A stretch of 37,881 bases of DNA, from contig JBJXGI010000017.1 of the NCBI GenBank assembly GCA_046153645.1, positions 1 through 37,881 on the forward strand, written 5' to 3'. The stretch comes from Elusimicrobiota bacterium (GTDB lineage Bacteria; Elusimicrobiota; Elusimicrobia; F11). Under the pieces are notes generated by a model. It saw only the letters and a program-made list of their open reading frames with translations. It was not told the origin of the DNA and did not search any database. Both the position numbers and the translations under genes were made by a program. Shown here in pieces: positions 2 through 34,543 of this stretch. Within the stretch, counting starts at the first letter, position 1, and each line of letters opens with the position of its first letter.

Positions 2-3000
2 ACTCAAGGATATAGTTCCAATGCCGATTGGGAAGGCAGTTTTGATGATCCTTATGCATCTCGAGTAACGGGTGCTCGTAACGCCTCTTGGACCATCACT
101 GATAATACCGCCAGTTATGTGGATACAGATCCCGCCACCATGGGTCGTATTGTTCGGAGCGCGGCCGGTGTTCCCAAAGTGTATGGCGGAAGTTGGAGTG
201 ATGATGGTTTCCAAAATGTGGTTCGCTCTGATAACTTCACTATTAATAATACGGAGGCCTGGGTTACCTCTGGCCAAACAGTTCCTTATACCACGCGCAA
301 TATGAGTTGGTCTTCCAATCGACAAAGAAGTTCATTTAATGCGGGTGTGATTACCGGTCAAAACGTTGTCGTTTTAGGTGCCAATGGAAATGTAATTGAT
401 TTTAATGTGATGGATGTGTGGGGCGAAGGAAGTTTTAATTCCCCTGTTGCGCGTATCACCGGAAGCTGGACGAAAACAGACACCTCAACATATTTTGACC
501 GAAGTTATAATAATTTTGGTCGTCCAACGGCAATTGCTCCTAGAAGTGTATCAAAAGCACTTTCTTATAATGGTCTTGCCCTTGAAACGGTGGACGACGC
601 CTATTCAGCCAGCCTGACTTATACCACCAGCAATGATGCCATTTGGGCCGCCACTGCAGAACAAAGAACACTCATGCAAGTGACTTTCGGATACAGTTCA
701 AATGCCAATTGGGGTGGAAGTTTTGATGATCCTTATGCTTCTAATATGACCGGGGCTCGCAACGCTTCTTGGTCGGTGGTAAATTACAAAAATAGTTATG
801 TTGATAATGATCCCCTTCGAATGGGACGTTTGATTCGAAGTGAAGCAGGTATGCCTCAAGTTATTGGTGGAAGCTGGAGTGATGACGGATTCCAAACCAT
901 TACAAGATCAGACAACACAACTTTTAACAATCCTCTTGTTTGGGCCACGATGGGACAAACAACGCCATTAGAAGTCAGAAGTAAAAGTTGGAGTTCCGAT
1001 CGCAGTCGTGTCACTTGGAATGCACAAGCCGCTTTGGGAGAAAATATTGTGGTTTATAACGCGGCGGGCAATTCCTTAAACTTTAACGTAATGAACGTTT
1101 GGGGAGACGGAACATTTGAAGCCCCCATTGCAAAAATAACAGGCAGTTGGAATAAATCTGAATCAACCACTTATTTTGATAGAAGCTACAATCAATATGG
1201 TCGTCCCACCGCTCAAGCGCCACGAACCATTTCTAAAGGTCTTAATTTTAATGGACTGGCCTTGCCTCATTTAGATGATGGTTATAGCGCGTCTTACAGT
1301 TATACCAGTAATAATAATCTCATCTGGGAAAAAACCGGCGAGCAGAGAACCTATCAACAAGTCACTTTCGGATATAGCTCCAATGAAAACTGGGGTGGTA
1401 ACTTTGATAATCCTTATACTTCAACGGTGACAGGAGCTCGTCAAACTTCTTGGAATGTGGCTGATTACTCTCATAGTTATGTAACAGACAATGAGGCCCA
1501 AATAGGGCGAGTGATTCGTTCTCAAGCAGGAACTCCGAAAGTATTTGGTGGAAGTTGGAGTGATGATGGTTTCCAAAACGTCACTCACGCTGATACGGTT
1601 ACCATTAACAATTCCATTATCTGGTCAACCATGGGACAAGCGATTCCGCTTGAGTCGCGGGCTCTCAGTTGGTCTTCTGATCGTTTGAGATCCACGTGGG
1701 ACGCTCGCCTTGCTGTTGGAAATGATGTGATTATTTATGACGCTTCAGGCCAAGCCATCAATATGAATGTGATGAATGTATGGGGGCGTGGGACTTTTGA
1801 AAATCCGATTCCTAGAATGACCGGAAGTTGGAATAAATCAGACGCGACCACTTATTATGAATTAAGTTACAACCAATATGGGCGTCCGACAGCCATCGCT
1901 CCTCGAACTCTTTCTAAAGGTTTAAATTACAACGGACTTTCTGTTCCTGGCCTTGATGACGCTTATTCCGGAAGTTTCACCTACATTAGTAACAACGATA
2001 TTATCTGGCAAAGAACGGGTGAACAAAGAACGTTCCAGCAAATTTCATTCGGATATAGTTCGAATGCCAATTGGGATGGAGATTTTGATAATCCCTATAC
2101 TTCAACAGTAACAGGCGCTCGTCAGACTTCATGGAATGTCACAGACTATTCAAAGAGTTATGTTACGGCAAATAACAATCAAATCGGTCAGGTGATTCGC
2201 ACTCAAGCCGGTGTTCCTAAAGTTTATGGTGGAAGCTGGAGTGATGATGGTTTCCAAACCATTACACGCGCTGACACCTTTACAACCAATAGCACTCTTG
2301 TCTGGGCGAATATGGGGCAAGCCACACCTGATCAAGTGCGCAATATGAGTTGGTCTTCTAACCGTCGTCGAGATACTTGGGATGCTCGCGCTGCGGTGGG
2401 GTCTGATGTCATGGCCAGAGACAAAAATGGGAATATCATCAACTTTAATGTCATTGATGCTTGGGGAGAAGGGAGTTTTGATGTGCCTATTCCCAAATCA
2501 ACAGGAAGTTGGAATAAAACAGATTCCTTTACTTATTATGATTTGAGTTATAACGAATTTGGTCGGCCCACCGCGACAGCCCCTAGAACTGTTTCAGACA
2601 GTCTCAATTACAACGGTCTTTCTATTCCTGGGTTAGACGACGCTTATACCGCTTCAAAAACTTATATCAGCAATAATGATTTTATTTGGAAAATCACAGG
2701 TGAGCAGCGCTCGCTTATGCAGGTTTCTTTCTCTTATAGTTCTAATGCGGCCTGGCAAGGGAGTTTTGATAATCCTTATACATCAACGGTGACGGGAGCC
2801 AAACAAGCGTCCTGGTCAGTGACTGATTTTTCAAAGAGTTACATCACGAATGATCCTGAGAAAGTAGGTCAAGTCAATCGCACAGAAGCGGGTGTTCCTA
2901 AAGTTTATGGAGGTTCTTGGAGTGATGACGGTTTCCAAAATGTGACTCGCGCCGATACTTTCACGACCAATAATACAATCGTCTGGATGAATGTTGCCAC

Positions 3001-6000
3001 GACCGTGCCTTTGGAAGTTCGTTCGTTAAGTTGGAGTTCCAATCGAAATCGATCTACTTGGGACGCCCGGCAAGCGGTAGGACAAGATGTCATTGCCTAT
3101 GACGCTCAAGGAAATACGCTTAACTTTAATGTGGTTAATGTTTTTGGTGAGGGATCTTTTGATGTCCCAGTCCCAAAAACAACAGGATCTTGGAGTAAAA
3201 CAGATTCTTCTACCTATTATGATTTAAGTTATAACCAATTTGGTCGTCCAACGGCCGTTGCTCCTCGGTTTGTATCCAGGTCGCTTGGGTATAACGGCTT
3301 ATCTCTCGATACGTTAGATGATGGGTATACCGGTTCGCTTACCTATGGAAGTAATAGTGACGTCATTTGGTCTGCCACTGGCGAACAAAGATCGGCTTTA
3401 CAAGCGACATTCTCTTATAGTTCCAATGCCGCTTGGGAAGGTAGTTTTGACAATCCTTATCAATCTCAAACAACTGGTGCTCGTTCTGCTTCTTGGAGCG
3501 TTACTGATTACACTCAAAGTTATGTCAATAATGATCCTGATCATATGGGTCAAATTATTAGATCTGAGGCGGGTGTTCCAAAAACCTACGGCGGAAGTTG
3601 GAATGATGATGGTTTCCAAAATGTCGTTCGAGCTCAAACAACCACTAAAAACAGCACAGAAATTTGGTCGACGGTGGGACAAGCGACGCCCTTTGAGACG
3701 AATGTAAAGAGTTGGAGTTCCAATCGCAGTCGTGGAACATGGGATGCTTTAAGCGAAATTGGACACGATGTCATTGTTTATGACGCTTTGGGCCAAGCAC
3801 TTAACTTTAATGTGATGAATGTTTGGGGAGGCGGCGAATTTAATAATCCCATCGCAAGAAATACCGGAAGCTGGACCAAATCAGATTCAACAACTTACTA
3901 CGACTTAAGTTATAACCAATTTGGTCGTCCAACCGCGCGAGCCCCACGGACGATTGCCAAAAGTCTCAGCTATAATGGCTTGGCCATGCCTGATTTAGAT
4001 GACGCTTACTCTGCCAGCGTTACCTATACCGCAAACAACAATCCGATTTGGCAGTTAACCGGAGAACAAAGAGCGCTTACACAAGTGACCGTTGGTTATA
4101 GTTCAAACGCCAATTGGGACGGCGATTTTGATAACCCTTATATCTCGTCAATAACAGGGGCTAGATCAGCTTCGTGGTCTATCGTTGATTATTCAAAGAG
4201 TTATGTTGATAGTAACGCGAGCTCCATGGGGCAAATTATTAGAACCGCCGAAGCTGCTCCCACCACCTATGGCGGAAGTTGGAGTGATGATGGTTTTCAA
4301 AATGTCACTCGAGCTGAAACCACGACAATTAATAATGCAGCACCTTGGATCAATGCGGGTTTAAGTATTCCCTTAACTTCTAACTCGAAGAGTTGGACAT
4401 CAAATAGAAATCGAGGAACGTGGGACGCTCAAGCTGCAGTGGGGCATAATGTTTATGCTTATGATGTTTATGGAAACCAAATTGATTTTAATGTGATGTC
4501 CGTTTGGGGTGAAGGAACGTTTGATGACCCTAAAAAACGAGTGACTGGCGGTTGGACCAAAAATGATTCCACCACTTATTTTGAAAAAAGTTACAACGAA
4601 TTTGGTCGCCCGATGAGTGATGCTCCCTATAGTGTTTCAAAGAGTTTAACTTACAATGGGTTATCGCTCCCCAATTTAGATGATGGCTATTTTGCTTCGG
4701 TTTCGTATTTAACCAACAACAATCAAATATGGCAGGGCACTGGTGAACAGCGGTCACTCTTACAAGTTACTTATGGTTATAGTTCAAATGCAGCCTGGGG
4801 TGGTAGTTTTAATGATCCCTATGCTTCGCAAACAACTGGTGCTCGTTCTACTTCTTGGTCTATTGCAGATTACTCAAAGAGTTTTGTTAACAATGATCCT
4901 GCCACGATGGGTCGGGTGATTCGATCAGAAGCTGGCGTGCCCAAAGTTTATGGGGGAAGTTGGAGCGATGATGGTTTCCAAAATGTGACACGGGCCGATA
5001 CGTTTACCAAAAATAATACTGAAATTTGGAACACCATGGGCCAAGCGGTTAACCAAGAAGTAAGAAGTCTTAGCTGGAGTTCAAACAGAAGTAGAGAAAA
5101 TTGGAACGCGTCTTCTGTGGTTGGTCAACCCATTATTGTTTATAACGAACAAGGACAACAAATCAACATGAGTAATATCAGTGTTTGGGGAGGGGGATCT
5201 TTTGCCTCTCCTGTTCCTAAAACAACGGGTAGCTGGAGTAAAACGGATTCAACAACTTATTTTGATCTCAGTTACGACCGGTTTGGTCGTCCCACTGCTA
5301 TTTCTCCTCGAACCATTTCTAAGTCGTTATCTTACAATGGGCTTTCTATTCCAATTATGGATGATGCCTACACGGCTTCTTTAACTTACATTTCCAATAA
5401 CGACATTATTTGGGCGGCTACAGGTGAGCAGCGAACACTTATGCAAGTTTCTTTTAGTTATAGCTCGAATGCCGCGTGGGGAGGAAGTTTTGACAATCCT
5501 TATGCGTCTGCTTTAACCGGAGCGCGTTCTGCTTCATGGAGTGTAGCTGATTATAGTCGTAGTTATGAAATGAATAATGCTGAGTCTATGGGGCAAATTA
5601 TTCGCACAGTAGCTGGTGTTCCTAAAAATTATGGGGGCAGTTGGAGTGATGATGGCTTAGATAATATTAATCGATCTGATATCTTTACAACCAATAACGC
5701 CAATGCGTGGATCAACTCAGGGCAAGTTGTTCCTGAAGAAACAAGAGTAAAAAGTTGGACGTCCAATCGAAACCGAGGAGCATGGGACGCGCAATCTGTA
5801 GTGGGTTCTGATGTTGAAGTAAGGGACGCACAAGGTCAAGTGCTTAACTTTAATCAAATGACTGTTTGGGGAGAGTTTAGTTTTGATCAACCCGGATACA
5901 AAAAATCAGGCGGTTGGAATAAATCGGATTCAACAACTTATTACAAACAAAGTTATAACCAATATGGTCGCCCAACGACGAGAGCGCCTCACACGATTTC

Positions 6001-9000
6001 CAAGGGATTAAGTTATAGTGGTTTACCATTAGAAACCATTGACGATGCTTTTAGCGCAACATTAAGTTACACCACCAATAGCGATGTTATTTGGGAATTA
6101 ACCGGAGAACAAAGAAGTGATTTCCAAATTGTTCAAGGATATAGTTCCAATTCAAATTGGGGGGGAAGTTTTGATAATCCTTTTGCTTCAAGGCAGACGG
6201 GCGCGCGTTCAGCAACATGGTCTGTTTCAGATTATTCCCTCAGTTATGAAAAATCAGATCCATTAAAAATCGGTTCTTTAAAAGCGGCGCAACTTCCAAA
6301 AGTATTTAGTGGAAGCTGGAGTACTGATGGAAAACACAGTTTTAACCGAACAAATAATGAGACAACCAATAACATCACGGTTTGGGGAAATACGGGGGCT
6401 TTGGTTCCTACTGAAGTTGTTTCTCGTACGTTTAGCTCAAATGCTGCTCGTGTCAATTGGGATATCGCCAGTCTCACGGGACAAAATGTTTTTGCCTTTG
6501 ATCCGAATGGAAACCAAATTAGTTTTAATAATTTAAATGTTTGGGGTGGTGGAGAGTATTCGATACCGATCGCCAAACCCACTGGAAGTTGGAATAGTTC
6601 TGAAAGCCGCACTTCTTTTGCGGGATCTTATAATTCATTTGGTCGCCCGACAGCATTGGCTCCTATCACCATTACAACAGGGATTAATTTTGATGGTTTG
6701 GCTCCGGCCGCTTCAGGGGGAGGCAAGAGCACTTCAATAACGATCGCGAAAAATAATGATGTGATCTGGCAGGCCACGGGTGAACAGCGAGCTCTTAATA
6801 CAAAAACCACAACCAATAATGAGACCCCTGGTACAGGGGCTTATTCTGAATCTGTTTCTGAAACAGATTTTAGTCAGAGTTATGAAGACAGTGATCCTGA
6901 AAAAATGGGACGGGTGAGACGTGAGAGTACACCCACTTCAAAAGGAACCTCATTTAGTTTCGATGGATTTTTAAGTTATGTTGGTTCAGAAAGTGAAACA
7001 AAAAATAATGGGGTCATTTGGTCTAATATGGCTCAAGTCACTCCCTTGGAAGTGCTTAGTCGAAGTTGGAGTTCAAACCTAGGAAAGGCAGGCTCATTTA
7101 ATTCTCCCATAGCTCAGATTACAGGTGCCTGGTTTAAGAGTGAGTCAAAAACATTTTATGACTTGAGTTATAATCAATATGGAAAAAATATTTCCGCAGC
7201 ACCCCGAACTGAAACACGAACACTCAATTACAGTGGGAGTTTAATCGACGGCTACTCTGCCTCACAAAGTAATCTCTCCATGGTGGATGCCATTTGGGAA
7301 GAATATGGAGAGCAGAGAAATAAATTTCAGTCTACTGCTGGTTGGAGTTCAGACGCTGGATGGAATGGTTCTTATAACAGCCCTGTTGTTGGTGAGTTAG
7401 AAGTTTCTACCAATTGGAGTCAAACCGACTACGCTGGGAGTTATTCCGCCACAGGACAGTTAACCGGTGTGTTACCACAGACCCAAGGCGGTTTTTGGAA
7501 TTACGATCTAAAATTAACCTATACCGCCGGAACCACAGAAACAACTCACGATGACAAGTTGTGGAATTTAACAGGAAACCTCTACAACGGTAGCGTCAAA
7601 ACACGAAGTTGGTCATCAGATGAAACTTCTGCTGGAAGCCTTGATAGTCCGCTTGCATTGAAAGACGGGTCTCTCTTCAGATCTCAAAACACAGTTAATT
7701 ACGCCGGTTCCTATAGCACGGTTTATGGGACTTTTGGGCGCCCCACCGAATCGGCCCCCACTGCTGAAGGGTGGAGATGGAGCGATAATGGTTTGGGTGA
7801 TGGGGTTATGCTTGTTGGCATTAGCAAAGCGATCACAAAACAAAGCAATCGAAATGATATTTGGTACAACCTTGGCGAAATAAGAACAGAATCATCCACC
7901 GATATTTCTTGGTCGTCAGATCGATCTTTGGTGAGTGGACAGACTGGCTCATCAGGCAGTGAATATGGCGCGGGATCTTTGTCCCAACCTGTTATTCAAG
8001 AAGACGGCACCTCTTTCCGCGCATTTACAAAAATGACGTATGAAAACAGTTTCTTCGCCTCTAATGGAAAAGCCAATGCGGCCGCGGCTCCCTTATCGGA
8101 AGGATGGGTTTTAAGTCATGATGGATTTCGTTTCACCAAAACAATCAATAAACAAACACACAATGGAACAGTGTTTGGTAACACGTCTAGAGTGGTTGCC
8201 TTATTAAATGACAATAAATCATTTTCTTCCGATGACCGAATGATCAGTTCTGATGTGAGTAACCCTGATTGGGGAGGTGGAACTTATTGGACACCGGTGT
8301 TATCCAAAGAAAACAGAACCTTTAGAAGATCGTCCTCCGTAACAAATTATGCAGCCTCTTATGATGGTTTAGGAAGAAACACAACTATAGCCCCTATTGT
8401 TGCAAATTCTATTTCTGAAAGTGGTGAACTTTGGAGAAAACGCGAGTTTAATTCTCAAACTGAAATGGATGGAATGGTTTCCAATATAAAATCTTCAATT
8501 GACGTTCTTGTTGATCAATTTTTAGCTTCTGAAGAAAATCAATTAAAAGCCAATTTACTTCATGAAACACAACATCAGATTTTGTTAGACGAGGTTGGCA
8601 CAATAAAAGCCAATCTAAAATCTGCAATTGATAATTGGGCTTTGTCTCACACAGCGGCCAACACCAGTTATGATGATTTCTATGATTTTATTGTGGACTG
8701 GCTTTCTCAGTTTCCTTCACTTGAAGAGTGGAAAAATGTGAGCAATTTCGATATTCAGCACGAGTTATACAATGTGATTCAGAAAGATTCCGAACATGGG
8801 CCGAATACGAAATTTATTGGTTCTTTAACAGGGTTGAATTCTGGAAATACAACGGTCGACAATAATATCGCAGCCGCACTCAGTTCAGGTGGGGACTTTA
8901 AGTCTATTGTCGCTGGTGTAACGAGTGCCACCACTGAAGTCTCTTCCAATGAAACCTTTTTGAAAGATTTGGGCGAAAAAATTTATCACTTCTCTGATAA

Positions 9001-12000
9001 GAAAAATGTGAAGTTCGATCATACATGGCGCTCAATGTCTTTATCAAAAGTAAAACAAGAAAATCTGGGAAGTGTGTGGAAGAATTTAGGGAAGCAAGTC
9101 GTTAGTAAAATGGAATCGAAATCAACTTCGATTTCGTTAGATGAAGTGGAAACAAGCACAGTTGAAGAAACTGATTATGTTTATGACACCGAAACCGGAG
9201 ATGTTATTTCCGCCTCCGGGTCTGGAACAACGATCACCATTGATGTTTACGGAAATAAACAAACACAGACCTTCACTAAAGATTATGCCCAAGTCGCCCT
9301 AAATCAAGCATTGTTAACAGAGCAAATCACGACGTCAATGACATCAAACAATGCGGACGGATCCAGTGTGATCATGAATGGCGAAAATTCCACTCAATTT
9401 TCTTACAACAAATACGCTCAGTTAACCGACCAGACCAGTCAGAGTTCCGTTACAAATAACGATGGATTTGGGAATCTTTCTCATTCAGATTCGTCCACAA
9501 CATTCATTATCATTCAAGGTATTGCACGCGCTGATAAAACAACGTCACATTCTACTTCTTACTCTAATGATGGAAGCGTTACAGTCGCTGATGATTCTGT
9601 TTTGGATTATGACTATGACAATTTTGGAAATTTAACTAAGGTCACAATGACAGATGGGTCTACAAAAACGACGGATATTTACGGAAACACTCAAGAGCGT
9701 AAGGCTGTCACAAATTATCGACTTTTCATGGGGCAAGCGCGCGTTTATCTCATCTCAGCTACAACGGAAAGTAATAACACAGATGGATCAAAGAGTACCA
9801 CTCAAACAGAAACCTTAAACCGGTGGCAGTCTTCCGGTGCGATGGCTAAAAACATTGCCTCTACGACACGCGGAACGATTATTTCTGATGACGGATATGG
9901 AAACTTAACCGTTGGTTTACGCTCTGAGGGAAAAGGTATTTTCCAAGAGACCAAAAATTACAAAGGATTTGCCAAACAAAGGGTCAATGTCACAAAAGCC
10001 AAAACCAGTCTTTTTGATGGTTCTTGGAATGAATCAACTTCTTGGTCGGTAAGTCAATACAGCGCCAATGGTGTTCTCCTTGGAGGCAATGGTTGGAGAG
10101 ACGGAAAAGGTGACGATGGAAATGGCAATACTGAAATTACTTATGGAACCGATCAGTTAGAAGTCATTCGCGGGGTTCTCAAAATAAAAACCTCAAATGT
10201 TCGGAGTTTAAATTCAGGCTTAGATGGTTCGTTTAACCATACGGTGTTAGATATTAATTACACGAATGCTCAAACAGGCGTTGTTAAACTTCTTGATGCG
10301 CAAGCATCGGGCCGAAGAAAATCAAACGATGGTTGGGGCAATCTCACCAGGGGAATTATTCTCCAGAAGTTTGACAAAGTGGTTATTGCCAATGCCGGTC
10401 GTGCCCTGGCAGAAGAGGTGACAACCAGAAGTACCACTTATGCGATGACGGGTGCTGTTACCGAATCTGAACAAATCACCTTTACAAGGAGAGATGGAAC
10501 AGGAAAAAGTTTAAGTCAATTTTCTTTGGCCAATAGTCGAACCGATGATAGTTTTGGAAATCTGAGTTTTGAAAGTAATCGGCAGGAATTTGAATTTAGA
10601 CAGGGTTTATTTAAGGTGACTTCAGTTATCTCCGAAGGCGGTTTTAGTAAACGAGATTTATCTGAGGGGCTTTTAACAACTATTACCACCTATAAATATA
10701 GTTCTAACTTTAAATTGATCGGAGCCAATGGAACAACTTTGAGCATTGGTTGGGACCGGTGGAATAACAGAAATCGTTCTTTCACTATTAATACCTACGG
10801 TATATTTGCTGGGCAGGCGAAAATTATCCGTTCTGATACGAGAACCCAACTTAGCAATATAGATGGATCCTGGCAGGATCGTGGTCAAACACAGTTATTC
10901 GGATATACCGATAACGGTCGCATATACGATTCTTATAGTTATTACTCGTTTGTGGGAGGAGATGGTTTCTTAACGAATACTTTTGGAAATGGTTTTTCAA
11001 ATTATGATATTTGGTTTGGCCAGGCTTATCAAACAACGGGTTTCAATCAACAGGGTTCAGATAGTCTTCGTGGTGGATGGAGTGAGTCCCAAGAAAACGT
11101 GGTTTATAATTACACCTATGGGTTGGGGCAAGGGAATAATCCATATCTAAACCTCAATAGCTTTAATGATGTCACACCTTTTGCGATGCCAAAATTCTTA
11201 ACGGTCTCCAGTCAAGGGATTTATAATTCACAGTCATTTGATAATGGAATTCTCTCTATTGAAACAAATGGCGTGAGAAACTCTTATATTATTGGAAATA
11301 CCAATATTCTCAAAGTAACAGATGAAACCGTCCTTAATTATCGAACCTACAACCAAACAGGCTGGTACCCAATCGATCAAACTGCCGGAAGTAAAGTGGC
11401 CACCTATACTTACGATAACGGAACAGCCGAATTCGTTAGTGGATATTCGTTGGCGCAAACCAATGTTTTTAGGTCGGAGAAAACCTCTGGTGTGGTGAAT
11501 TATTTTGGAACCAATAAAAAAGAAACCTTTTTCGCCAATATGGCTGGCAAACGTGTTGTGCTTTTGGACGTAACCACTTCTAAGTTAACGACGACTTACA
11601 ATGGTGTTGTGAAAAGCGTTTCAAATTCCAGTGCAATCACAGATTTTTATTATAACGCTGTTGGAAATAGCACTTATAGTATTGAAGATTCAAATTCCAC
11701 TTCAACCAGTGAAGGTGTGTTTTCTCGTTCTCATTCCATTAAAACTTCTCTGAACTTATTTGGAGTGTTAGACTCTATTTCAACGGTCACCACATCAACG
11801 AGTATTGGAAAGCTTCAAGAGTATGTGACAACCTCACGTAGTTGGGTCAACCGAACATGGAGTATTTTTGGCCAAACCGGGGCTACTGGTGGATTTTCAA
11901 ATTCAACAACGAGAGTTGTTTTTAACAATGCCACCGGCGCCATGGGCGGTCACATCCAAGGTTCTACTACCAGCGGATCATCGGGAACAAATAAGTACGC

Positions 12001-15000
12001 GATTTATTATGGGGTGGGTGAGCAAGTGATGGTAACTCGCTCTAGTGATGGGAATTCTCAGACAGTAACAACTTATAAACGTAATGCGGTGGGATTGGGG
12101 CTTTCTTCTGTTTCAGTGAATACCCGCATTAGCGGAGGCGGAGATTGGGTTTCTGTGGCAGTCACTTCAAGCGTTCGTGATTGGGGTGAACATTTCCGGA
12201 TTAACACAGTTGCCTTAACAGAGGTTCAGCCTCTGTGGGTTTTTGAAATGGTTAAGCCAGTTGCAGTTAATTTATCTCTAGTCAGAAACTATTCTTATAA
12301 CGGTGCGGGTGTTCTTGTTGGGGTGGATGTTACTGACGTCAAAGCGAGGGTTGCCTTTAATAACTCTAGTTATTTAAATGTCCATGATTTAGCCAAAGCC
12401 ATTCAAGGTCCTTTGGCCGCGCAAAACGGCATTCTTTATTTCAATACTTTGGTTCTCGATGAAAAAGGAATTGAGGTAGATTATAGAGAAGATTGGATTG
12501 TGGTTGATGGAGATGCGTATCGCACAAAAACAAGTCATGATTTTGGGTTTATGGGTTTCAAGAATAACGGAATTAATTTTACTGGTGATTATATCCGCGT
12601 TCATACCTCCAAACAGTTCACTTATTTTAATAATGCTTTCAGGCAGTTAACCCATGTTGAAAACACGAATTACAAAGAACATTTATCAACGAATCAAAAC
12701 TCATTCCAGATTGACCCGCGTTTCGTTGAAACAGGTGAAATTTATTCTTATTCCCATGCCAACCGTTTTGGAATGAAAATTGAAAATGGGGCTGAAACCA
12801 AAGCGGGCGATATCATTGACGAAGAAATTAATGAAGAAATTGTGAAAATCACTCGCGGAGTGGCTCCTCCAGGGGGCGTTCCACCGATGATTATTGATTG
12901 GAAATCACTTTGGACCACTGGAGGAGTATGGACCCAGCGAGCACCTGGAAGTCGTCTTAAAAGTTCCCTTGTTTCCAATGTAGGGGCCAGTGGTTTCATG
13001 TTCCATTGGGGGAACTTAGGTAATTTTGGATTCCCGATTAAAGGGAATATTAAAAATCATAAATTTACTATTGGTTATGGTAATCAATTTGGCGCAGGAG
13101 CTTTTTGGGATCCAACCTGGTTAAGGCCAGGTGGTTTCTTAAGTTCGAGAAGTGCCGCGTGGCAGCCTATTGCGGTAGCGACAGTCCCTGGTGATGGGTT
13201 AGACCCTACAGATGATGATTTTAGACACAACGGGCCTGGGGCTTTGAATCGAATTGATCCCGATAAAGGAGAAGGAGACAAAGCGGCCGAGGCGCCTAAA
13301 GGCAATCAAAAACCTGCTGAAGAAAAAGATAAAGCCAAAGACAAAGATGGAAACCAAGAAAAGAAAGGACCCGGAGTTGGAACGGAAGAAAAGAAAGACG
13401 CACAGGGGCGTCCTATCCCCGGTGATAAAAATCCTGGCAATAATAATGGTGCTGGCGCTGGTAGGGATGGTGCCAATGAGAAACCGAAGGATAATAGAAC
13501 GGCCGATCAAATTCGCCAAGACACAAAAAAAGTTGGAGATGCCACAGCCAAGCAGAAAGATCTCTTTAAAGATGAAAAAGGAAATATTCCTCAAAACGTT
13601 CGTCCTATTTATGATCCTAAGTCAGGTAAATTGATCGGATATCAGGCTGAATATGAAAAAGGAAAAACACGCATATTTGCTAATCAGCTTGTAGCCGGGA
13701 GAGTTGTTCCTGTGAGATTAAATGAAGCTCAATCCGCATTTATCGAACAAGGGCTTTCCGGTGTTAAAAATGGTAAAGGAGAGTTTGTCAATAATGAGCG
13801 ATTTATTTCGATTGAGTCATTCGCTCGTGCATTATCTCCAGCTCAATTAAAATCTTTGGTCGTGTTATCCGGCACTGCTGAAGGAAAAGCTGTAGGTGAA
13901 TCAATTGGAAATGGGCGAACTCATAAAACTTTTGAAGTTGATGGTCGTGGCCGATCTCCGGGAGCTGGTCTAGGAAAAGTAAATAACCGTACGACAAAAT
14001 CAGTAAAAACCGAATTGGTTCCATCTGCTCAGGGCGCTGCCGGAAATGGAGCAAATGCTCAGCAACAAGCGAAGAACGGAAATGGTGCGCCCAGACAACC
14101 TGGAGAAAAGAAAAATGAAAAACCAAAGAGTTTACAGCAGGCCACTCGCGACGCTATTCGAGAGCTGACTAAAAAAATTAATAACTTAAAAGAAGGTGAA
14201 CAGCTTTTAGATAAAGCAGGAAATCCGCAATTTTTCCAGGTAACTTTCATTCGTTACGACAAGAAAACAGGACAGTATTTGAAAGAAACAATCGTTGTTA
14301 GTGTTCATCGACTTGCAGACGGTCGGCATGTCATAAAAGGCGCTAACGCAGAAGAGCAAAAGAAGCTTGATACAGTTGATCGAGTTGCGGTGGGAAATTC
14401 TACCACAAAGCCTGATCCTAAACAGGGCCTCATTTTATATTCCAATCAAATTGCATCTATTCTCGTTTCAGGTGTTGTTCTTTATCAGGAAAAAGTTGAG
14501 AAGAAAGCCCCTGCTAACCCCAATAATCAGGCAGACAAACCCAATCAAGGTAAAAAATCTGAGCCTCAACAGGCTCAAGGGTTAAATGGGCAAGGTCAAT
14601 TAAATACTCCAGCTCAAAAATTATCAGAACCTTTCAAAGCAGTCCTCATGGAAAAAGGGCCTACTGGCAAGGTTAAGAAAAAAGAAGTTGAGTTGGTTAT
14701 GGCTATCATGAATGATGGAACAGTTACTCTAAAAGATAAAAAAACCGGAGAAATTGTTAAGTCTGGGACCAACATCTTATTGGTTGGAGGAGTCAATGGT
14801 CAAATTCAGATTAATAAAAAGGGAGAGCTCGTGGTCCCTTCTGCACTTCAGGCCATTGTTGGTGCGAAACTGACATCAATGCTTCAAGCCAAATATAACG
14901 GAGATAAATCTAAATTTGTTGGACTTCAAAAAACCTCGGCAGGAGCTGTGTTTAAAGTATTTCATGTGAAGTTAGATGTTGATCGAGGTTTAACTCTAAA

Positions 15001-17134
15001 AACTGTTGAGAACGGAAAAACTGGGGACGTGAGTCTTGAAAAAGGAGAAGTAAGTCTTTTTACTCCTGCTGGAGTTACCACTCTTCGAGTAGATTCAAAT
15101 ACGGAGAAAGGCACGGCGTTTAAATTAGCTTCACCTAAAACAGCTTCAAGTGCTTTTGTTATTGGTGCGCTTATTAATAGTTTAGAAACAGGTCCGGATG
15201 CTAAATCCTCAGATATGAAGGCATTGGTGGTCACCTCAGATGGAAAGTTAAGTGTTGCTACCATTAAAATTGAGGGGGGAAAAGTCTCTATAAAAGAAGA
15301 CCGAGGGCAAACAATGGGCCAAGTGACTGTTTATACGAGGACGGCCAGAATTGATGCCAATATGGTTCAAGGTAAAGTTTCAGAAGTTCAAAAGATTCGC
15401 GGTGGCGCAGGACTTGCGGGGGCCTCTCAAAATATAAATCAGTTCTTTGCAAAAATTGAACTATCAAAAGCTGTGAGCGTGTTAAAAGATTTACAAGGGA
15501 AATTGAATGCACTTCCAGCGGGGGCACTCCCAGCGAATGTGCTGGCTCTCAAAGGGGCGATTAATAATTTAATTTCTGGAAACAAAGTTATTGATAGACC
15601 GACTTTGCTTCATTTTGTGAATTTAGTTTTTGGCTCTAGTGTTGATGCGGCCGCAAATCTTCAAGATCGTATTGGTAGCTTTAATGCGTTTTTAAGTAGC
15701 GGTTTAGATGTTAAACCGTTATTCGACCTTTTAAAGAGTGGTCCTGACACAAGCAAATTTGATCGAGTAGAAGTCATTGCCCCTAATAACCCACTCATAA
15801 TTTATGAAATGCCTCAGAATCTCATGTTAAGCACCAATTTGCCTGGGCTTTTTGCGGCGCTCGGAGATGCAAATCTTTCTGTTCAACAATTACCAGGTCA
15901 ATATGTCGCTAAATTTGGTGCTGCCATGGCTCAAAATTTTAAAGAAGGTTTTTCTAAAGTAAAAAATGACCCCAGGCTTCAAAACGGTTATATGGCGATC
16001 ATAAATCAAGGTGGGGTTCCCCAAATTGCTGTCATTGCAATGGACCCAGCCAATCCAAAACAAAGCACCATTTGGACTCCGCTGAATGGGTTTACGAAAA
16101 GCATTGTTTATGAAGAACCCAGCAAGGCCAATCTCAGCAAATTGCCTATGCCAGGTATCAATAACGATTTTCGTCCCGGGGTGATTAATAGTGGAAAGTT
16201 TGATTTGCAAAAATCATTTGCCCCTGTGGTTAAATCAATTTGGAATGAGACTCAGTTATTCTCCGCTGCTGGACATGCCTTTGGAAATGATCTTCATCAT
16301 TCTCAGGTATCTCTGTCTGCCCAACAGCTGGTAGGTGGGTTGAACGGTTCAGGTATAACCGATCACCATGAGACAGCTGGTGTGATTTTGGTTTCTGAAA
16401 ATAAAGGCAAGTTACAATTCAACGGGACTCATGTTTTTAGAACAGTTCATTTTAGAAGTGAAACATCAATTTATCCAACGACAGCGCAGTTTGAAGTGGC
16501 TCAAACAATTAACGATATTTGGAATCAAAATGATGATGAAGAAAATGTGAGAGCTGAAATTCAACGCTTGCTTGAAGCGCGACCAGAAATGCAGGATATG
16601 TTTGTACTCTCTGCATCATTCAAAGATGACGAGGAAAAACTTCTAAACGTTCTCTTGGGTGCAGAAGCTTTCTCCACAGAAGCTGGAATTATGGTGTTAG
16701 ATAAGAGTTACCGCCATATTCAGGGCACGTTTGTTCCATTCCATACTCATTTGGGTCACCCCGAAAACTTTACGCAGTGGGCTCCGTATTCCCCGACTCC
16801 TGAGGATATAAGCGCGCATAAATCTCTTATGGTGAGCTATCGCAAAACTCACGGCATACACTTGAATTTGCCTGGCGTTATTTTCCATTCAGCAGGGCAA
16901 ATTTCAATGTTCTGGGTTTCACAAGATGGGAGTGGTAAAGTTCAACTTCAAGTATTTGATGGTGAAGGAAAGATATTTGATGTCATCACTTCTGAAAAAA
17001 CACTTGCTTATGCCTATTTAGGAGTTGACCCCGCTAGTGATCACGATCGTCCTCTTGAGCAAAAGCGCTCAGGGCTGGAAAACATCTATATTCATAAAGT
17101 CATTCTTTGGGATAATCGCCGCCGCTTGTTTTAG
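2..17134 (+). CDS. Giant repetitive beta-rich protein, 5'-truncated (at least 5710 aa visible); tandem repeats, YD/RHS-like region, C-terminal JAB/MPN-like motif
   Basis: The frame is open from position 2 (TQGYSSNADWEGSFDDPY...) to TAG at 17132-17134. The GTG at 119 in the ORF track is an internal Val inside a repeat. The repeats are conserved at protein level with many synonymous differences, which supports coding. Confidence 0.95.
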   Translation, partial: TQGYSSNADWEGSFDDPYASRVTGARNASWTITDNTASYVDTDPATMGRIVRSAAGVPKVYGGSWSDDGFQNVVRSDNFTINNTEAWVTSGQTVPYTTRNMSWSSNRQRSSFNAGVITGQNVVVLGANGNVIDFNVMDVWGEGSFNSPVARITGSWTKTDTSTYFDRSYNNFGRPTAIAPRSVSKALSYNGLALETVDDAYSASLTYTTSNDAIWAATAEQRTLMQVTFGYSSNANWGGSFDDPYASNMTGARNASWSVVNYKNSYVDNDPLRMGRLIRSEAGMPQVIGGSWSDDGFQTITRSDNTTFNNPLVWATMGQTTPLEVRSKSWSSDRSRVTWNAQAALGENIVVYNAAGNSLNFNVMNVWGDGTFEAPIAKITGSWNKSESTTYFDRSYNQYGRPTAQAPRTISKGLNFNGLALPHLDDGYSASYSYTSNNNLIWEKTGEQRTYQQVTFGYSSNENWGGNFDNPYTSTVTGARQTSWNVADYSHSYVTDNEAQIGRVIRSQAGTPKVFGGSWSDDGFQNVTHADTVTINNSIIWSTMGQAIPLESRALSWSSDRLRSTWDARLAVGNDVIIYDASGQAINMNVMNVWGRGTFENPIPRMTGSWNKSDATTYYELSYNQYGRPTAIAPRTLSKGLNYNGLSVPGLDDAYSGSFTYISNNDIIWQRTGEQRTFQQISFGYSSNANWDGDFDNPYTSTVTGARQTSWNVTDYSKSYVTANNNQIGQVIRTQAGVPKVYGGSWSDDGFQTITRADTFTTNSTLVWANMGQATPDQVRNMSWSSNRRRDTWDARAAVGSDVMARDKNGNIINFNVIDAWGEGSFDVPIPKSTGSWNKTDSFTYYDLSYNEFGRPTATAPRTVSDSLNYNGLSIPGLDDAYTASKTYISNNDFIWKITGEQRSLMQVSFSYSSNAAWQGSFDNPYTSTVTGAKQASWSVTDFSKSYITNDPEKVGQVNRTEAGVPKVYGGSWSDDGFQNVTRADTFTTNNTIVWMNVATTVPLEVRSLSWSSNRNRSTWDARQAVGQDVIAYDAQGNTLNFNVVNVFGEGSFDVPVPKTTGSWSKTDSSTYYDLSYNQFGRPTAVAPRFVSRSLGYNGLSLDTLDDGYTGSLTYGSNSDVIWSATGEQRSALQATFSYSSNAAWEGSFDNPYQSQTTGARSASWSVTDYTQSYVNNDPDHMGQIIRSEAGVPKTYGGSWNDDGFQNVVRAQTTTKNSTEIWSTVGQATPFETNVKSWSSNRSRGTWDALSEIGHDVIVYDALGQALNFNVMNVWGGGEFNNPIARNTGSWTKSDSTTYYDLSYNQFGRPTARAPRTIAKSLSYNGLAMPDLDDAYSASVTYTANNNPIWQLTGEQRALTQVTVGYSSNANWDGDFDNPYISSITGARSASWSIVDYSKSYVDSNASSMGQIIRTAEAAPTTYGGSWSDDGFQNVTRAETTTINNAAPWINAGLSIPLTSNSKSWTSNRNRGTWDAQAAVGHNVYAYDVYGNQIDFNVMSVWGEGTFDDPKKRVTGGWTKNDSTTYFEKSYNEFGRPMSDAPYSVSKSLTYNGLSLPNLDDGYFASVSYLTNNNQIWQGTGEQRSLLQVTYGYSSNAAWGGSFNDPYASQTTGARSTSWSIADYSKSFVNNDPATMGRVIRSEAGVPKVYGGSWSDDGFQNVTRADTFTKNNTEIWNTMGQAVNQEVRSLSWSSNRSRENWNASSVVGQPIIVYNEQGQQINMSNISVWGGGSFASPVPKTTGSWSKTDSTTYFDLSYDRFGRPTAISPRTISKSLSYNGLSIPIMDDAYTASLTYISNNDIIWAATGEQRTLMQVSFSYSSNAAWGGSFDNPYASALTGARSASWSVADYSRSYEMNNAESMGQIIRTVAGVPKNYGGSWSDDGLDNINRSDIFTTNNANAWINSGQVVPEETRVKSWTSNRNRGAWDAQSVVGSDVEVRDAQGQVLNFNQMTVWGEFSFDQPGYKKSGGWNKSDSTTYYKQSYNQYGRPTTRAPHTISKGLSYSGLPLETIDDAFSATLSYTTNSDVIWELTGEQRSDFQIVQGYSSNSNWGGSFDNPFASRQTGARSATWSVSDYSLSYEKSDPLKIGSLKAAQLPKVFSGSWSTDGKHSFNRTNNETTNNITVWGNTGALVPTEVVSRTFSSNAARVNWDIASLTGQNVFAFDPNGNQISFNNLNVWGGGEYSIPIAKPTGSWNSSESRTSFAGSYNSFGRPTALAPITITTGINFDGLAPAASGGGKSTSITIAKNNDVIWQATGEQRALNTKTTTNNETPGTGAYSESVSETDFSQSYEDSDPEKMGRVRRESTPTSKGTSFSFDGFLSYVGSESETKNNGVIWSNMAQVTPLEVLSRSWSSNLGKAGSFNSPIAQITGAWFKSESKTFYDLSYNQYGKNISAAPRTETRTLNYSGSLIDGYSASQSNLSMVDAIWEEYGEQRNKFQSTAGWSSDAGWNGSYNSPVVGELEVSTNWSQTDYAGSYSATGQLTGVLPQTQGGFWNYDLKLTYTAGTTETTHDDKLWNLTGNLYNGSVKTRSWSSDETSAGSLDSPLALKDGSLFRSQNTVNYAGSYSTVYGTFGRPTESAPTAEGWRWSDNGLGDGVMLVGISKAITKQSNRNDIWYNLGEIRTESSTDISWSSDRSLVSGQTGSSGSEYGAGSLSQPVIQEDGTSFRAFTKMTYENSFFASNGKANAAAAPLSEGWVLSHDGFRFTKTINKQTHNGTVFGNTSRVVALLNDNKSFSSDDRMISSDVSNPDWGGGTYWTPVLSKENRTFRRSSSVTNYAASYDGLGRNTTIAPIVANSISESGELWRKREFNSQTEMDGMVSNIKSSIDVLVDQFLASEENQLKANLLHETQHQILLDEVGTIKANLKSAIDNWALSHTAANTSYDDFYDFIVDWLSQFPSLEEWKNVSNFDIQHELYNVIQKDSEHGPNTKFIGSLTGLNSGNTTVDNNIAAALSSGGDFKSIVAGVTSATTEVSSNETFLKDLGEKIYHFSDKKNVKFDHTWRSMSLSKVKQENLGSVWKNLGKQVVSKMESKSTSISLDEVETSTVEETDYVYDTETGDVISASGSGTTITIDVYGNKQTQTFTKDYAQVALNQALLTEQITTSMTSNNADGSSVIMNGENSTQFSYNKYAQLTDQTSQSSVTNNDGFGNLSHSDSSTTFIIIQGIARADKTTSHSTSYSNDGSVTVADDSVLDYDYDNFGNLTKVTMTDGSTKTTDIYGNTQERKAVTNYRLFMGQARVYLISATTESNNTDGSKSTTQTETLNRWQSSGAMAKNIASTTRGTIISDDGYGNLTVGLRSEGKGIFQETKNYKGFAKQRVNVTKAKTSLFDGSWNESTSWSVSQYSANGVLLGGNGWRDGKGDDGNGNTEITYGTDQLEVIRGVLKIKTSNVRSLNSGLDGSFNHTVLDINYTNAQTGVVKLLDAQASGRRKSNDGWGNLTRGIILQKFDKVVIANAGRALAEEVTTRSTTYAMTGAVTESEQITFTRRDGTGKSLSQFSLANSRTDDSFGNLSFESNRQEFEFRQGLFKVTSVISEGGFSKRDLSEGLLTTITTYKYSSNFKLIGANGTTLSIGWDRWNNRNRSFTINTYGIFAGQAKIIRSDTRTQLSNIDGSWQDRGQTQLFGYTDNGRIYDSYSYYSFVGGDGFLTNTFGNGFSNYDIWFGQAYQTTGFNQQGSDSLRGGWSESQENVVYNYTYGLGQGNNPYLNLNSFNDVTPFAMPKFLTVSSQGIYNSQSFDNGILSIETNGVRNSYIIGNTNILKVTDETVLNYRTYNQTGWYPIDQTAGSKVATYTYDNGTAEFVSGYSLAQTNVFRSEKTSGVVNYFGTNKKETFFANMAGKRVVLLDVTTSKLTTTYNGVVKSVSNSSAITDFYYNAVGNSTYSIEDSNSTSTSEGVFSRSHSIKTSLNLFGVLDSISTVTTSTSIGKLQEYVTTSRSWVNRTWSIFGQTGATGGFSNSTTRVVFNNATGAMGGHIQGSTTSGSSGTNKYAIYYGVGEQVMVTRSSDGNSQTVTTYKRNAVGLGLSSVSVNTRISGGGDWVSVAVTSSVRDWGEHFRINTVALTEVQPLWVFEMVKPVAVNLSLVRNYSYNGAGVLVGVDVTDVKARVAFNNSSYLNVHDLAKAIQGPLAAQNGILYFNTLVLDEKGIEVDYREDWIVVDGDAYRTKTSHDFGFMGFKNNGINFTGDYIRVHTSKQFTYFNNAFRQLTHVENTNYKEHLSTNQNSFQIDPRFVETGEIYSYSHANRFGMKIENGAETKAGDIIDEEINEEIVKITRGVAPPGGVPPMIIDWKSLWTTGGVWTQRAPGSRLKSSLVSNVGASGFMFHWGNLGNFGFPIKGNIKNHKFTIGYGNQFGAGAFWDPTWLRPGGFLSSRSAAWQPIAVATVPGDGLDPTDDDFRHNGPGALNRIDPDKGEGDKAAEAPKGNQKPAEEKDKAKDKDGNQEKKGPGVGTEEKKDAQGRPIPGDKNPGNNNGAGAGRDGANEKPKDNRTADQIRQDTKKVGDATAKQKDLFKDEKGNIPQNVRPIYDPKSGKLIGYQAEYEKGKTRIFANQLVAGRVVPVRLNEAQSAFIEQGLSGVKNGKGEFVNNERFISIESFARALSPAQLKSLVVLSGTAEGKAVGESIGNGRTHKTFEVDGRGRSPGAGLGKVNNRTTKSVKTELVPSAQGAAGNGANAQQQAKNGNGAPRQPGEKKNEKPKSLQQATRDAIRELTKKINNLKEGEQLLDKAGNPQFFQVTFIRYDKKTGQYLKETIVVSVHRLADGRHVIKGANAEEQKKLDTVDRVAVGNSTTKPDPKQGLILYSNQIASILVSGVVLYQEKVEKKAPANPNNQADKPNQGKKSEPQQAQGLNGQGQLNTPAQKLSEPFKAVLMEKGPTGKVKKKEVELVMAIMNDGTVTLKDKKTGEIVKSGTNILLVGGVNGQIQINKKGELVVPSALQAIVGAKLTSMLQAKYNGDKSKFVGLQKTSAGAVFKVFHVKLDVDRGLTLKTVENGKTGDVSLEKGEVSLFTPAGVTTLRVDSNTEKGTAFKLASPKTASSAFVIGALINSLETGPDAKSSDMKALVVTSDGKLSVATIKIEGGKVSIKEDRGQTMGQVTVYTRTARIDANMVQGKVSEVQKIRGGAGLAGASQNINQFFAKIELSKAVSVLKDLQGKLNALPAGALPANVLALKGAINNLISGNKVIDRPTLLHFVNLVFGSSVDAAANLQDRIGSFNAFLSSGLDVKPLFDLLKSGPDTSKFDRVEVIAPNNPLIIYEMPQNLMLSTNLPGLFAALGDANLSVQQLPGQYVAKFGAAMAQNFKEGFSKVKNDPRLQNGYMAIINQGGVPQIAVIAMDPANPKQSTIWTPLNGFTKSIVYEEPSKANLSKLPMPGINNDFRPGVINSGKFDLQKSFAPVVKSIWNETQLFSAAGHAFGNDLHHSQVSLSAQQLVGGLNGSGITDHHETAGVILVSENKGKLQFNGTHVFRTVHFRSETSIYPTTAQFEVAQTINDIWNQNDDEENVRAEIQRLLEARPEMQDMFVLSASFKDDEEKLLNVLLGAEAFSTEAGIMVLDKSYRHIQGTFVPFHTHLGHPENFTQWAPYSPTPEDISAHKSLMVSYRKTHGIHLNLPGVIFHSAGQISMFWVSQDGSGKVQLQVFDGEGKIFDVITSEKTLAYAYLGVDPASDHDRPLEQKRSGLENIYIHKVILWDNRRRLF
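11..6139 (+). repeat. Nine intragenic tandem repeats of exactly 681 bp (227 aa)
   Basis: The Tyr codon of the YSSN motif starts at 11, 692, 1373, 2054, 2735, 3416, 4097, 4778, 5459 and 6140, all 681 bp apart. Shared motifs include GGSWSDDGFQ, SWSS[ND]R, [YF]GRPT and [TA]GEQR. Confidence 0.97.
6140..9130 (+). repeat. Degenerate, shortened continuation of the 227-aa repeat
   Basis: xGEQR-like anchors at 6101, 6776, 7304 and 7871 are spaced 225, 176 and 189 aa apart. The last trace is VWKNLGKQ near 9080. Confidence 0.8.
9176..11113 (+). repeat. Nine cryptic 69-75-aa beta-rich repeats (YD/RHS-like)
   Basis: DxxGN-like anchors at 9242, 9461, 9674, 9890, 10115, 10328, 10547, 10754 and 10961. Most are followed by GQA[RK]-like, DGS and YxY[DN]xxG-like turns. 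Confidence 0.75.
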
Positions 17135-17179: not shown

Positions 17180-17431
17180 ATGCCTACAAAAAATCCACGA
17201 ATAAATGTTGTTTTGGAAGAGTCTATCTATAAGGCCATCGCCAAGCTTGCGAAGCAAGATCATGTTTCTCTCTCTCTTAAAACCAGAGACTTAATTAGAG
17301 AAGCTTTAGAGATTTATGAAGATCATGTTTTAGTACAAATAGCTGAAGGACGAGAAAAAACCTTTCACCGGTCTAAGGCATTAACACATAGTCAGGTATG
17401 GGGTTCCTCCAAAAGGAAAAAGGCGGCGTGA
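17180..17431 (+). CDS. Ribbon-helix-helix antitoxin (RelB/CopG-like)
   Basis: 83 aa with an N-terminal RINVVLE strand and SLSLKTRDLIREAL helix pattern, followed by an acidic YED segment. It is coupled to a RelE-like gene. Confidence 0.85.
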   Translation: MPTKNPRINVVLEESIYKAIAKLAKQDHVSLSLKTRDLIREALEIYEDHVLVQIAEGREKTFHRSKALTHSQVWGSSKRKKAA

Positions 17432-17721
17432 CATTTCAGGTTCTTTATCACCCCCATATATCGCGAGACATCAAGCGTATCAGCCATGAGATGCATTCTC
17501 GCATTGAAACCATGCTTTCAACAAAATTATTGATCGCACCCGAAATTTATGGCAAACCATTGTCAGGCAGTTTGGGTGGGTATTGGAAATTAAGAGTCGG
17601 AAATTACCGTATTGTTTTTAAAATCGTTAAAAATGAAATCTGGATTTTAGCTATTGTTCATCGTAAAAGTGTGTATGGTGATGTCATCAAACGGTTATTA
17701 TGGAGCCCCATTCACTCGTAA
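17428..17721 (+). CDS. RelE/ParE-family type II toxin (mRNA interferase-like)
   Basis: 97 aa from GTG at 17428, overlapping the antitoxin stop (GTGA). Motifs YGKPLSGSLGGYWKLRVGNYRIVF and IVHRKSVY. Confidence 0.9.
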   Translation: MTFQVLYHPHISRDIKRISHEMHSRIETMLSTKLLIAPEIYGKPLSGSLGGYWKLRVGNYRIVFKIVKNEIWILAIVHRKSVYGDVIKRLLWSPIHS

Positions 17722-17725
17722 TAAA

Positions 17726-18421
17726 TCAAGTTCCTGGTAAGTATCGATATCCAATTCTTTCAACAGTTTCAATTCGGTTTTCGTAGGGGGTTAGTTTTTT
17801 TCGTAGACGACCTACGTGGACATCCACTGTTCTGGTACTACCCACCAATTCATGACCCCAAACTGTTTCGCAAAGAACTTCTCTGGTTAAAACACCATTT
17901 TTAGAACGCATGAGAGCGACCAATAGGTCGAATTCTTTCGGGGATAGGTCTACGGTTTTTTTATCTACTTCTAGGCGGTGTTGATCGAGGAAGAGTTTTA
18001 TTCCCGCATCTTCTATCAATATCTGAGTTGATTCTTTTGGTTTGCTTCTTCTTAAAACAGCTTTAATGCGAGCAAGAAATTCTCCTTGGTTAAAAGGTTT
18101 AACAATATAGTCATCCGCACCCATTTCAAGGCCGGTAATTTTATAGGAATCTACCGACTGAACGGTTAACATGACAATCGGAAAGTTTGATGTTATTGGA
18201 TTGGCCTTTAATTTTCGAATAATTCCAAAACCATCATCGTCAGGAAGTTGTAAGTCTAGAATAACTAAGTTTGGCTTAAAGTTTGGGACCTTTTTCATGA
18301 ACTCTTCTGCAGTTGAGGCAGAGTCGACATTAAACCCTTCTCTTTGTAAAACAGTTTCAACCAATCGCCGAATATCCGGATCATCATCAACAATGAGAAT
18401 TTTTTGTTTTACTTCTGCCAT
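17726..18421 (-). CDS. OmpR/PhoB-family response regulator
   Basis: REC domain (ILIVDDD, LVILDLQLP, GADDYIVKPF) plus winged helix (LSPKEFDLL, RTVDVHVGRLRKKL). Confidence 0.96.
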   Translation of the reverse strand: MAEVKQKILIVDDDPDIRRLVETVLQREGFNVDSASTAEEFMKKVPNFKPNLVILDLQLPDDDGFGIIRKLKANPITSNFPIVMLTVQSVDSYKITGLEMGADDYIVKPFNQGEFLARIKAVLRRSKPKESTQILIEDAGIKLFLDQHRLEVDKKTVDLSPKEFDLLVALMRSKNGVLTREVLCETVWGHELVGSTRTVDVHVGRLRKKLTPYENRIETVERIGYRYLPGT

Positions 18422-18445
18422 GTGGCCCCCTTGCCCTTATCTAAG

Positions 18446-19918: not shown

Positions 19919-20014
19919 TTAGATAATAAGGATGGTATATGAAAAGGATATTGGAAAGGTTTTTTTTAAAAAACATAGTGAAATTTCAGCACATTCACTT
20001 AACACTTACAATCT

Positions 20015-20944: not shown

Positions 20945-20972
20945 TTGAAAAACAGTGTCAAACCTTTATACT
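20945..20972 (+). promoter_or_regulatory. Putative sigma70 promoter TTGAAA-N16-TATACT upstream of the ATPase
   Basis: Both hexamers match consensus at 5/6. The -10 ends 11 nt before the ATG at 20984. Confidence 0.45.
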
Positions 20973-20983
20973 GGAAATAGATT

Positions 20984-22717: not shown

Positions 22718-22718
22718 T

Positions 22719-34011: not shown

Positions 34012-34069
34012 GGTTAATCCTCCTAAAAACAATTTATCGGAAATTAGCAAATATCGCTTACTGAGGAAA

Positions 34070-34543
34070 CTACGATTTCTTGCGTTTTTTAACCACTGAG
34101 GGTGGGGCAGGAGTATCTTTCCATTCGGGGACTGCTTTAACGTTGTATTTGCCAACATCAATGAACTTTTCGATATGATTTTTGTCTTTATAAGAAATTT
34201 TTCTAAGGACATTGAGAGTAAATAATTGACGATCTCCTGGGTTTAAAGTGGGTGTTTCTATCTTTTGATAGAAAAAAGTTCGGGGACGAGTATTTTTCAT
34301 TCCTCCAATTTCTATTCTTAGGCGAGTTTGATAAGCAGGTTGAAGACCTTTATTGTAGAGAATGCCTTCAAAACAAACTTTATCATCATCGCAATTGTCT
34401 ATCACTGTGAAATCTTCAGTTATAACTTCAGCGCTGAGAGAAGGTCGACTGGGTGTTTTTTTCATTTGGAGATTGGGATCTAGAGCAAAACCATGGCTGG
34501 GCAGAAAGAATAATCCCCATAAAATTAGTATTGTTTTATTCAT
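34070..34543 (-). CDS. Hypothetical exported protein
   Basis: The signal-peptide-like MNKTILILWGLFFLPSHGFA starts at ATG 34543. Beta-rich body with a basic tail. Confidence 0.65.
   Translation of the reverse strand: MNKTILILWGLFFLPSHGFALDPNLQMKKTPSRPSLSAEVITEDFTVIDNCDDDKVCFEGILYNKGLQPAYQTRLRIEIGGMKNTRPRTFFYQKIETPTLNPGDRQLFTLNVLRKISYKDKNHIEKFIDVGKYNVKAVPEWKDTPAPPSVVKKRKKS

Follow-up and report, generated by a model that had tools for sequence, protein, structure and literature searches.

What does a JAB/MPN domain do at the tip of a giant repeat protein, and on whose molecules would it act? The question is raised by a 37,881-nucleotide stretch of DNA from an Elusimicrobiota bacterium (contig JBJXGI010000017.1, positions 1 to 37,881, assembly GCA_046153645.1), which we call the window. 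A sequence-only reading had proposed such a domain at the tip of the giant, and it is indeed the last domain of a frame of 5,710 residues that ends at 17134. By predicted fold and motif, the tip is a member of the JAB/MPN superfamily, and by analogy it most plausibly works like the JAMM peptidases.

The JAB/MPN tip and its relatives

The tip has the following features, all on the + strand.

16202..17134, +, JAB/MPN-fold domain; its C-terminal hairpin and helix are family-specific, and its end carries a conserved LWD motif
16370..16372, +, E5457, predicted general acid/base, where the first core strand after helix 1 begins (model and alignment)
16439..16660, +, optional acidic helical insert of 74 residues (5480-5553), placed after the first strand hairpin and before the HTH strand
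16742..16750, +, H5581-T-H5583, predicted zinc ligands where a core strand ends (model positions 186-193)
16793..16807, +, P5598-T5599-x-x-D5602, with Thr replacing the usual Ser; D5602, in model helix 210-222, is the predicted third zinc ligand

The motif positions given by the sequence-only reading were exact. ETAGVILV begins with E5457 at nucleotide 16370, H5581 and H5583 lie at 16742 and 16748, T5599 at 16796 and D5602 at 16805, and PGVIFHSAGQISMF begins at 16871. The domain start, formerly put at 16360, moves about 160 nucleotides upstream to near 16200, where a conserved S5405 and the first helix are found. The usual JAMM spacing is H-x-H-x10-D, with a Ser three residues before the Asp. 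The tip differs on both counts: 18 residues separate the second His from the Asp, a loop whose extra length had been noticed from the letters, and P, T and D of PTxxD are present in all 33 distinct sequences. Thr for Ser is a conservative change. The predicted structure has the JAB/MPN fold that had been proposed, including the deaminase-like core of the superfamily, which runs from a helix through a strand hairpin and the HxH strand to the Asp helix and a final strand hairpin. The Glu is modelled on strand 1, HxH where strand 3 ends, and the Asp in the next helix, and the placement of E, HxH, T and D matches the JAMM strand and helix description (PMC3239186).

The motif is beyond chance, because it is nearly unique in the genome that carries it. 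H[ST]H occurs 25 times in 639,668 residues of frames of at least 300 residues, while the fuller pattern H[ST]H-x(6-16)-P[ST]xxD has a single occurrence, at the tip itself. With the cut lowered to 150 residues, one further case appears, an ordinary Prok-JAB gene on another contig (C92). One public DNA contig covers 16352-16790 without any differing base; it may come from the source sample and is thus not independent.

A phmmer search of 1.84 billion cluster representatives gave 22 matches, comprising the tip itself, 19 relatives and 2 spurious hits. Among the 11 other genomes of the same family, searches recovered the tip in 10, with one match each (11/12 including its own), and no second copy in any family genome searched. 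It was absent from genomes of other families of the class (0/49) and, by profile search, of other families of the phylum (0/298). The one family genome that lacks it (G006) has its scaffold on a 7,424-bp contig spanned by a single open frame, and the adjoining regulator gene is cut by the contig end; the missing tip is therefore attributed to an assembly break. All eight named records that carry the domain belong to Elusimicrobiota, including Ca. Obscuribacterium magneticum (L015), which is probably a respiring soil bacterium with twitching motility (10.1101/2022.07.08.499144). Four further metagenome loci carry the tip, and none of them lies in a viral contig.

The two His and the Asp are conserved, as the first reading would have them: H, T, H, P, T and D stand unchanged in 27/27 sequences of a homology-selected alignment. 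E-x-[ASV]-G is found in 29 of the 33 distinct homologues, and the other four end before the motif. The first His lies 126-198 residues from the C-terminal end in 31/33; the other two look like broken fragments. The long gap between Glu and HTH and its acidic helical insert hold for the window copy (123 residues; 15 D/E vs 7 K/R in the 74 residues, modelled as helices) and not for the family. The gap is 39-52 residues in 18/29 homologues and 103-144 in only 11, so the insert is optional. The insert-bearing sequences form one tree group with moderate support (86/86), and compact members of about 200 residues exist. The window copy is divergent; it sits on a long branch and lacks a loop Gly kept in 31/33 and a loop Arg kept in 29/33. 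In the tip tree, four genomes of one genus cluster (support 92/83). Distances among the JAB domains correlate loosely with those of the adjoining regulator (Mantel r 0.40, p 0.035) and of the kinase (r 0.40, p 0.066), which suggests roughly vertical inheritance.

Comparison with Prok-JAB, DUF4329 and RadC profiles, to which the first reading had pointed, placed the tip in none of them. At E <=5, Pfam DUF4329, Tox-JAB and RadC matched 0/19 tip members, and PF14464 (Prok-JAB/Mec+) likewise matched 0/19. The sole PF14464 match of the genome is the separate gene on C92, to which hhalign relates the tip with a probability of 0.8%. The neighbourhoods have no linkage to ubiquitin-like, E1 or sulfur-transfer genes of the kind that marks Prok-JAB/Mec+, and neither a RadC (PF04002) profile match nor a fusion to HhH or DNA enzymes was seen. 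Pfam, NCBIfam, PHROGs and PADLOC profiles gave no match to the tip clade, and PF14220 (DUF4329/Tox-JAB-2) gave none in three family genomes (G000, the window's own, G003 and G005). By profile, then, the tip is outside Prok-JAB, RadC and DUF4329. Distant kinship with DUF4329 is possible as a lead. Hhalign against a shallow four-sequence DUF4329 alignment gave a probability of 1.8% (E 0.027), and an ESM feature search ranked a DUF4329 cluster (0.88) below unnamed viral clusters (0.91-0.92), with a recognition of 2140, under the 2300 mark of the tool. A true DUF4329/Tox-JAB-2 tip was seen after a DPLG motif on an 804-residue frame of a different Elusimicrobiota family (L058, G215:C60), and three other aligned DUF4329 matches are short stand-alone proteins.

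The giant chain and its genomic setting

The remaining features of the giant, and the gene pair that follows it, are listed below.

2..17134, +, 3' third of the giant gene, open reading frame of 5,710 residues, 5' end missing at the contig start
2..8251 (end approximate), +, array of 227-residue beta-type repeats recognised by GGSW recurrence, decaying towards its end
9002..13051, +, YD/RHS-type repeat region (TIGR01643), final part of the conserved scaffold
13103..13168, +, junction motif DP..W..P..GG..W.P, end of the conserved scaffold, distinct from an RHS DPxG site
13169..15985, +, hypervariable linker, about 940 residues long, first half rich in Lys, Gly, Gln and Pro (identity and composition)
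15986..16120, +, short, loosely conserved module upstream of the JAB domain, probably of beta-strands (alignment of 19 homologues)
17180-17721, +, RHH-like antitoxin (83 residues, best Pfam E of 0.003 not reaching the cut-off) and ParE-family toxin (107 residues, E 8e-8)

Giant proteins are frequent in Elusimicrobiota and poorly characterised (PMC11573180; 10.1101/2023.11.21.568195). The frame at 2-17134 runs off the start of its contig, so that the window opens inside it, and a search of the other contigs of the same genome for the missing 5' part gave no match. Two complete orthologues are 18,006 and 18,142 residues long. The window protein aligns to residues 12,217-17,839 of one of them (G008) with 32% identity over 5,869 columns. 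The same genome holds more than 70 reading frames over 1,000 residues, including frames of 10,189, 8,738 and 7,736 residues, and many of these end in a short Ala-rich tail.

The GGSW motif recurs nine times in the window at an exact period of 227 residues, and repeat units 1-9 share a mean ungapped identity of 60%. In G008 the period is 231 residues with about 19 units, and in G003 the array is far less regular by the same motif. One period could correspond to one turn of a beta-spiral. Membership in the RHS/YD-repeat proteins is given by one above-threshold match each in the window and in G008. In the window this is the YD repeat TIGR01643, a weak single match (18.5 bits against a cut-off of 15.8), while PF05593 stays under its cut-off of 22 at 18.3 bits. 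In G008 it is PF05593, a single match at 25 bits. An ESM search of the scaffold region returned unnamed Elusimicrobiota clusters alone (0.76-0.83).

The giant is likely exported. Nine N-termini have a common signal-peptide-like start, judged by eye. The N-terminus is strongly conserved (44-61% identity; L020:19210-19998 and L100-L108). A DPRG-like motif, which resembles the RHS DPxG cleavage motif, lies about 50 residues past the predicted signal cleavage site in 7/9 N-termini. One genome that is 14% contaminated (G004) has two copies of the N-terminus (L108, L105), probably a binning effect. Past the junction, orthologues run for 1,236-1,341 residues, mostly hypervariable. Mean pairwise identity is 46% in the JAB core (11 sequences), 32% in a scaffold segment (7) and 19% in the linker (7 orthologues, range 14-27%). 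Hydrophobic or amphipathic helical stretches stand right after the junction motif in several orthologues (G008 at ~16,826 and ~16,939; L012; L019), and are weak or absent in the window copy. They could be membrane-entry segments.

Downstream, 12 of 15 loci have a convergent response regulator as the first gene past the giant, and the remaining three differ from one another: the RHH-like/ParE pair in the window, a frame of 114 residues in L012 and several other genes in G003. Thus there is no shared immunity gene. The RHH-like/ParE pair has no match in the loci of eight relatives, and the arrangement suggests that the spot between giant and regulator is an insertion site. A family-wide block follows at 17726-23783, with genes named by a look at their sequences: a response regulator and a HAMP histidine kinase on the - strand, and on the + strand a receiver protein with a GGDEF-like part, a PilB-like ATPase and a GAF/HD-type protein. 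At 33388-34212 (-) lies a membrane protein of 274 residues with a WGNL/WFNV-rich pattern, whose likeness we take to be to the urate oxidase N-terminal (PuuD-like) family.

Upstream of the giant start, a CHASE2 cyclase and ABC genes are found in 8/9 loci (the remaining contig is too short), Tad pilus genes in 5/6 loci that reach far enough, and an Omp85 gene within the upstream cluster in 2/4. In the window's own genome this cluster lies on another contig (C20), where a different gene comes after it and the contig stops. The Tad (Flp) pilus cluster comprises TadG-like, CpaB, TadA and TadB genes, and in some genomes it also encloses an Omp85/POTRA gene (L020:4999-12132; G000:C20 6092-13483). The association may be plain family synteny. 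Tad-like systems in Myxococcus reportedly serve contact killing, a parallel that is suggestive and no more.

What the tip may cut

We tentatively favour, at somewhat less than an even chance, the explanation that the tip is an exported, zinc-dependent JAB peptidase or isopeptidase that cleaves an amide bond, either on or inside a cell that is not kin, be it prey or host. The same tip is kept family-wide without a shared antidote gene, and so its target likely belongs to another kind of cell. A peptidase is preferred because of characterised JAB chemistry, a core that is neutral to acidic in 28/33 sequences, an effector-like position and the finding of no ubiquitin in the family itself (0/12 genomes). 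The giant would be exported by Sec through its N-terminal signal-like segment, its repeats would wind into a long beta-sheet shell or tube, and the variable linker would tether the enzyme at the far end. The tip is made last and would thus be unfolded in the producer cytoplasm; we propose that no immunity protein is therefore needed. H5581, H5583 and D5602 would hold the zinc, E5457 would activate water and T5599 would stabilise the intermediate. The bond cut would be a peptide or isopeptide bond of the non-kin cell, not of the producer or its kin, and the long conserved loop from HTH to T would set the specificity. The substrate might be a ubiquitin-like conjugate in a eukaryotic or archaeal partner, or an isopeptide cross-link in a cell envelope.

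In a role that the first reading had not considered, the tethered JAB domain may instead process its own giant precursor, perhaps where scaffold and linker meet, or act on a partner protein, in a single event during export or assembly. We judge this rather unlikely, though not far behind the favoured explanation. It would fit the single-copy, housekeeping-like conservation and roughly vertical inheritance of the tip, and it would make an immunity gene unnecessary. Among 11 distinct junctions (two alignments, read by eye), DP is found in 8, with the Asp not invariant, and the RHS aspartyl-autoprotease motif DPxG in none; four junction sequences gave no NCBIfam match to an RHS-associated core with the bipartite DPxG autoprotease. 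Another protease would therefore be needed for C-terminal release. Gly-Gly lies within the junction motif in 8/11, and there is a precedent in BubCD, whose JAB enzyme cuts a pre-protein after glycine (PMC11601596). However, Gly-Gly is absent from the other three junctions though the JAB loop is nearly invariant, and BubCD recognises a folded ubiquitin-like domain, of which Pfam found none in the giant (a weak test). A C-terminal tip behind a variable linker is also the usual position of RHS-type effectors (PMC13018210).

It is unlikely that the tip is an effector delivered into a non-kin cell to act on nucleic acids, in the nuclease- or deaminase-like manner that has been predicted for RadC and Tox-JAB domains. 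RHS-type repeats with a C-terminal JAB domain parallel Tox-JAB-1/2, which were proposed as nucleases (PMC3482391), the ESM clusters give leads in this direction, and an Arg and a His are conserved near the predicted site (27-sequence alignment). On the other hand, that nuclease activity is a prediction alone (PMC3482391), the profile and hhalign results with DUF4329, Tox-JAB and RadC are negative or very low, most cores are neutral to acidic, and the window copy lacks the conserved loop Arg. Still less probable is a non-enzymatic domain that binds zinc or a partner as a structural cap or adhesin tip. Inactive MPN domains do exist and rank among the top structural matches of the tip model, and Thr for Ser, an optional insert and a 15-residue loop able to cover the site would suit such a role; but all five catalytic positions, including the Glu that binds no metal, are conserved at 27-59% identity.

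A classical polymorphic toxin of kin competition, for which the RHH/ParE pair or some other gene downstream would confer immunity, is very improbable and largely refuted: despite RHS/YD-type repeats with a C-terminal enzyme and two small co-directional genes behind it in the window, the analogy drawn by the first reading fails, since the tip is of one type and single copy across the family and better conserved than the scaffold, where variable tips with orphans and a cognate immunity gene would be expected, and the small genes encode an RHH-like protein and a toxin of the ParE kind, with no downstream match in eight other loci.

Comparison with known systems

Characterised JAB enzymes act inside cells on ubiquitin-like tails, and the secreted Tox-JAB proteins are predictions for which the literature consulted shows no activity. 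RHS-borne JAB tips are thus already known as predictions, and the combination seen here is not a new category. The tip does belong to a protein that ranks among the largest conserved single-copy ones in a phylum about which little is known, and the compact members of its clade should express easily. Its activity would tell whether a secreted JAB domain serves as peptidase or nuclease, and its substrate would reveal the prey or livelihood of these bacteria. If it proved to be a deubiquitinase, bacterial effectors would gain a new chemical class, and a true autoprotease would explain the maturation of such giant chains. In the main texts of the open-licence literature, no paper on this JAB-tipped giant family was found, and the main texts of PMC11573180 and 10.1101/2023.11.21.568195 make no mention of JAB.

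The JAMM/MPN+ peptidases are represented by P. furiosus JAMM1 (5ld9), Sst2/AMSH (4jxe), CBASS Cap3 (9ild), BubCD (9ea4/9ea5), BRCC36 and Rpn11. Unlike these intracellular enzymes, the tip has Thr for Ser, the optional 74-residue helical insert and an extra C-terminal hairpin and helix; it lacks a sequence-profile match, stands outside any operon of ubiquitin-like, E1 and E2 genes and is fused to a likely exported giant. The gap from second His to Asp, 18 residues in the tip, is 10 in BubCD (PMC11601596). Tox-JAB-1 and Tox-JAB-2 (DUF4329) also place a C-terminal JAB domain with E, H[ST]H and D motifs on a secreted RHS/YD-repeat protein (PMC3482391). The tip differs from them in being conserved and single copy, with no shared immunity gene, no DPxG core motif and no PF14220 match, and in standing at the end of 1,236-1,341 residues past the junction of a scaffold of 18,000 residues.

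Tc toxin C subunits and bacterial teneurin-like proteins likewise combine YD-type repeats with a variable C-terminal region behind them that holds an enzyme domain (PMC13018210). Their variable toxin is encapsulated and freed by a DPxG aspartyl autoprotease, and immunity genes are co-expressed; neither that autoprotease motif nor a shared immunity gene was found here, and the giant scaffold is several times longer, with a strict array of 227-231-residue repeats. The giants of Omnitrophota (Archaeovorins and the Dockerin-type) are also very large exported proteins of related uncultured bacteria, with predicted RHS-like hollow beta-tubes of about 1,500 residues, upstream secretion-type genes and a proposed role in predation (10.1101/2023.11.21.568195). 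They carry many transmembrane segments together with glycosyl-enzyme, C39/S8 peptidase and SecA-like domains, whereas the window giant is almost free of hydrophobic segments and bears one recognisable enzyme, the JAB domain at its tip.

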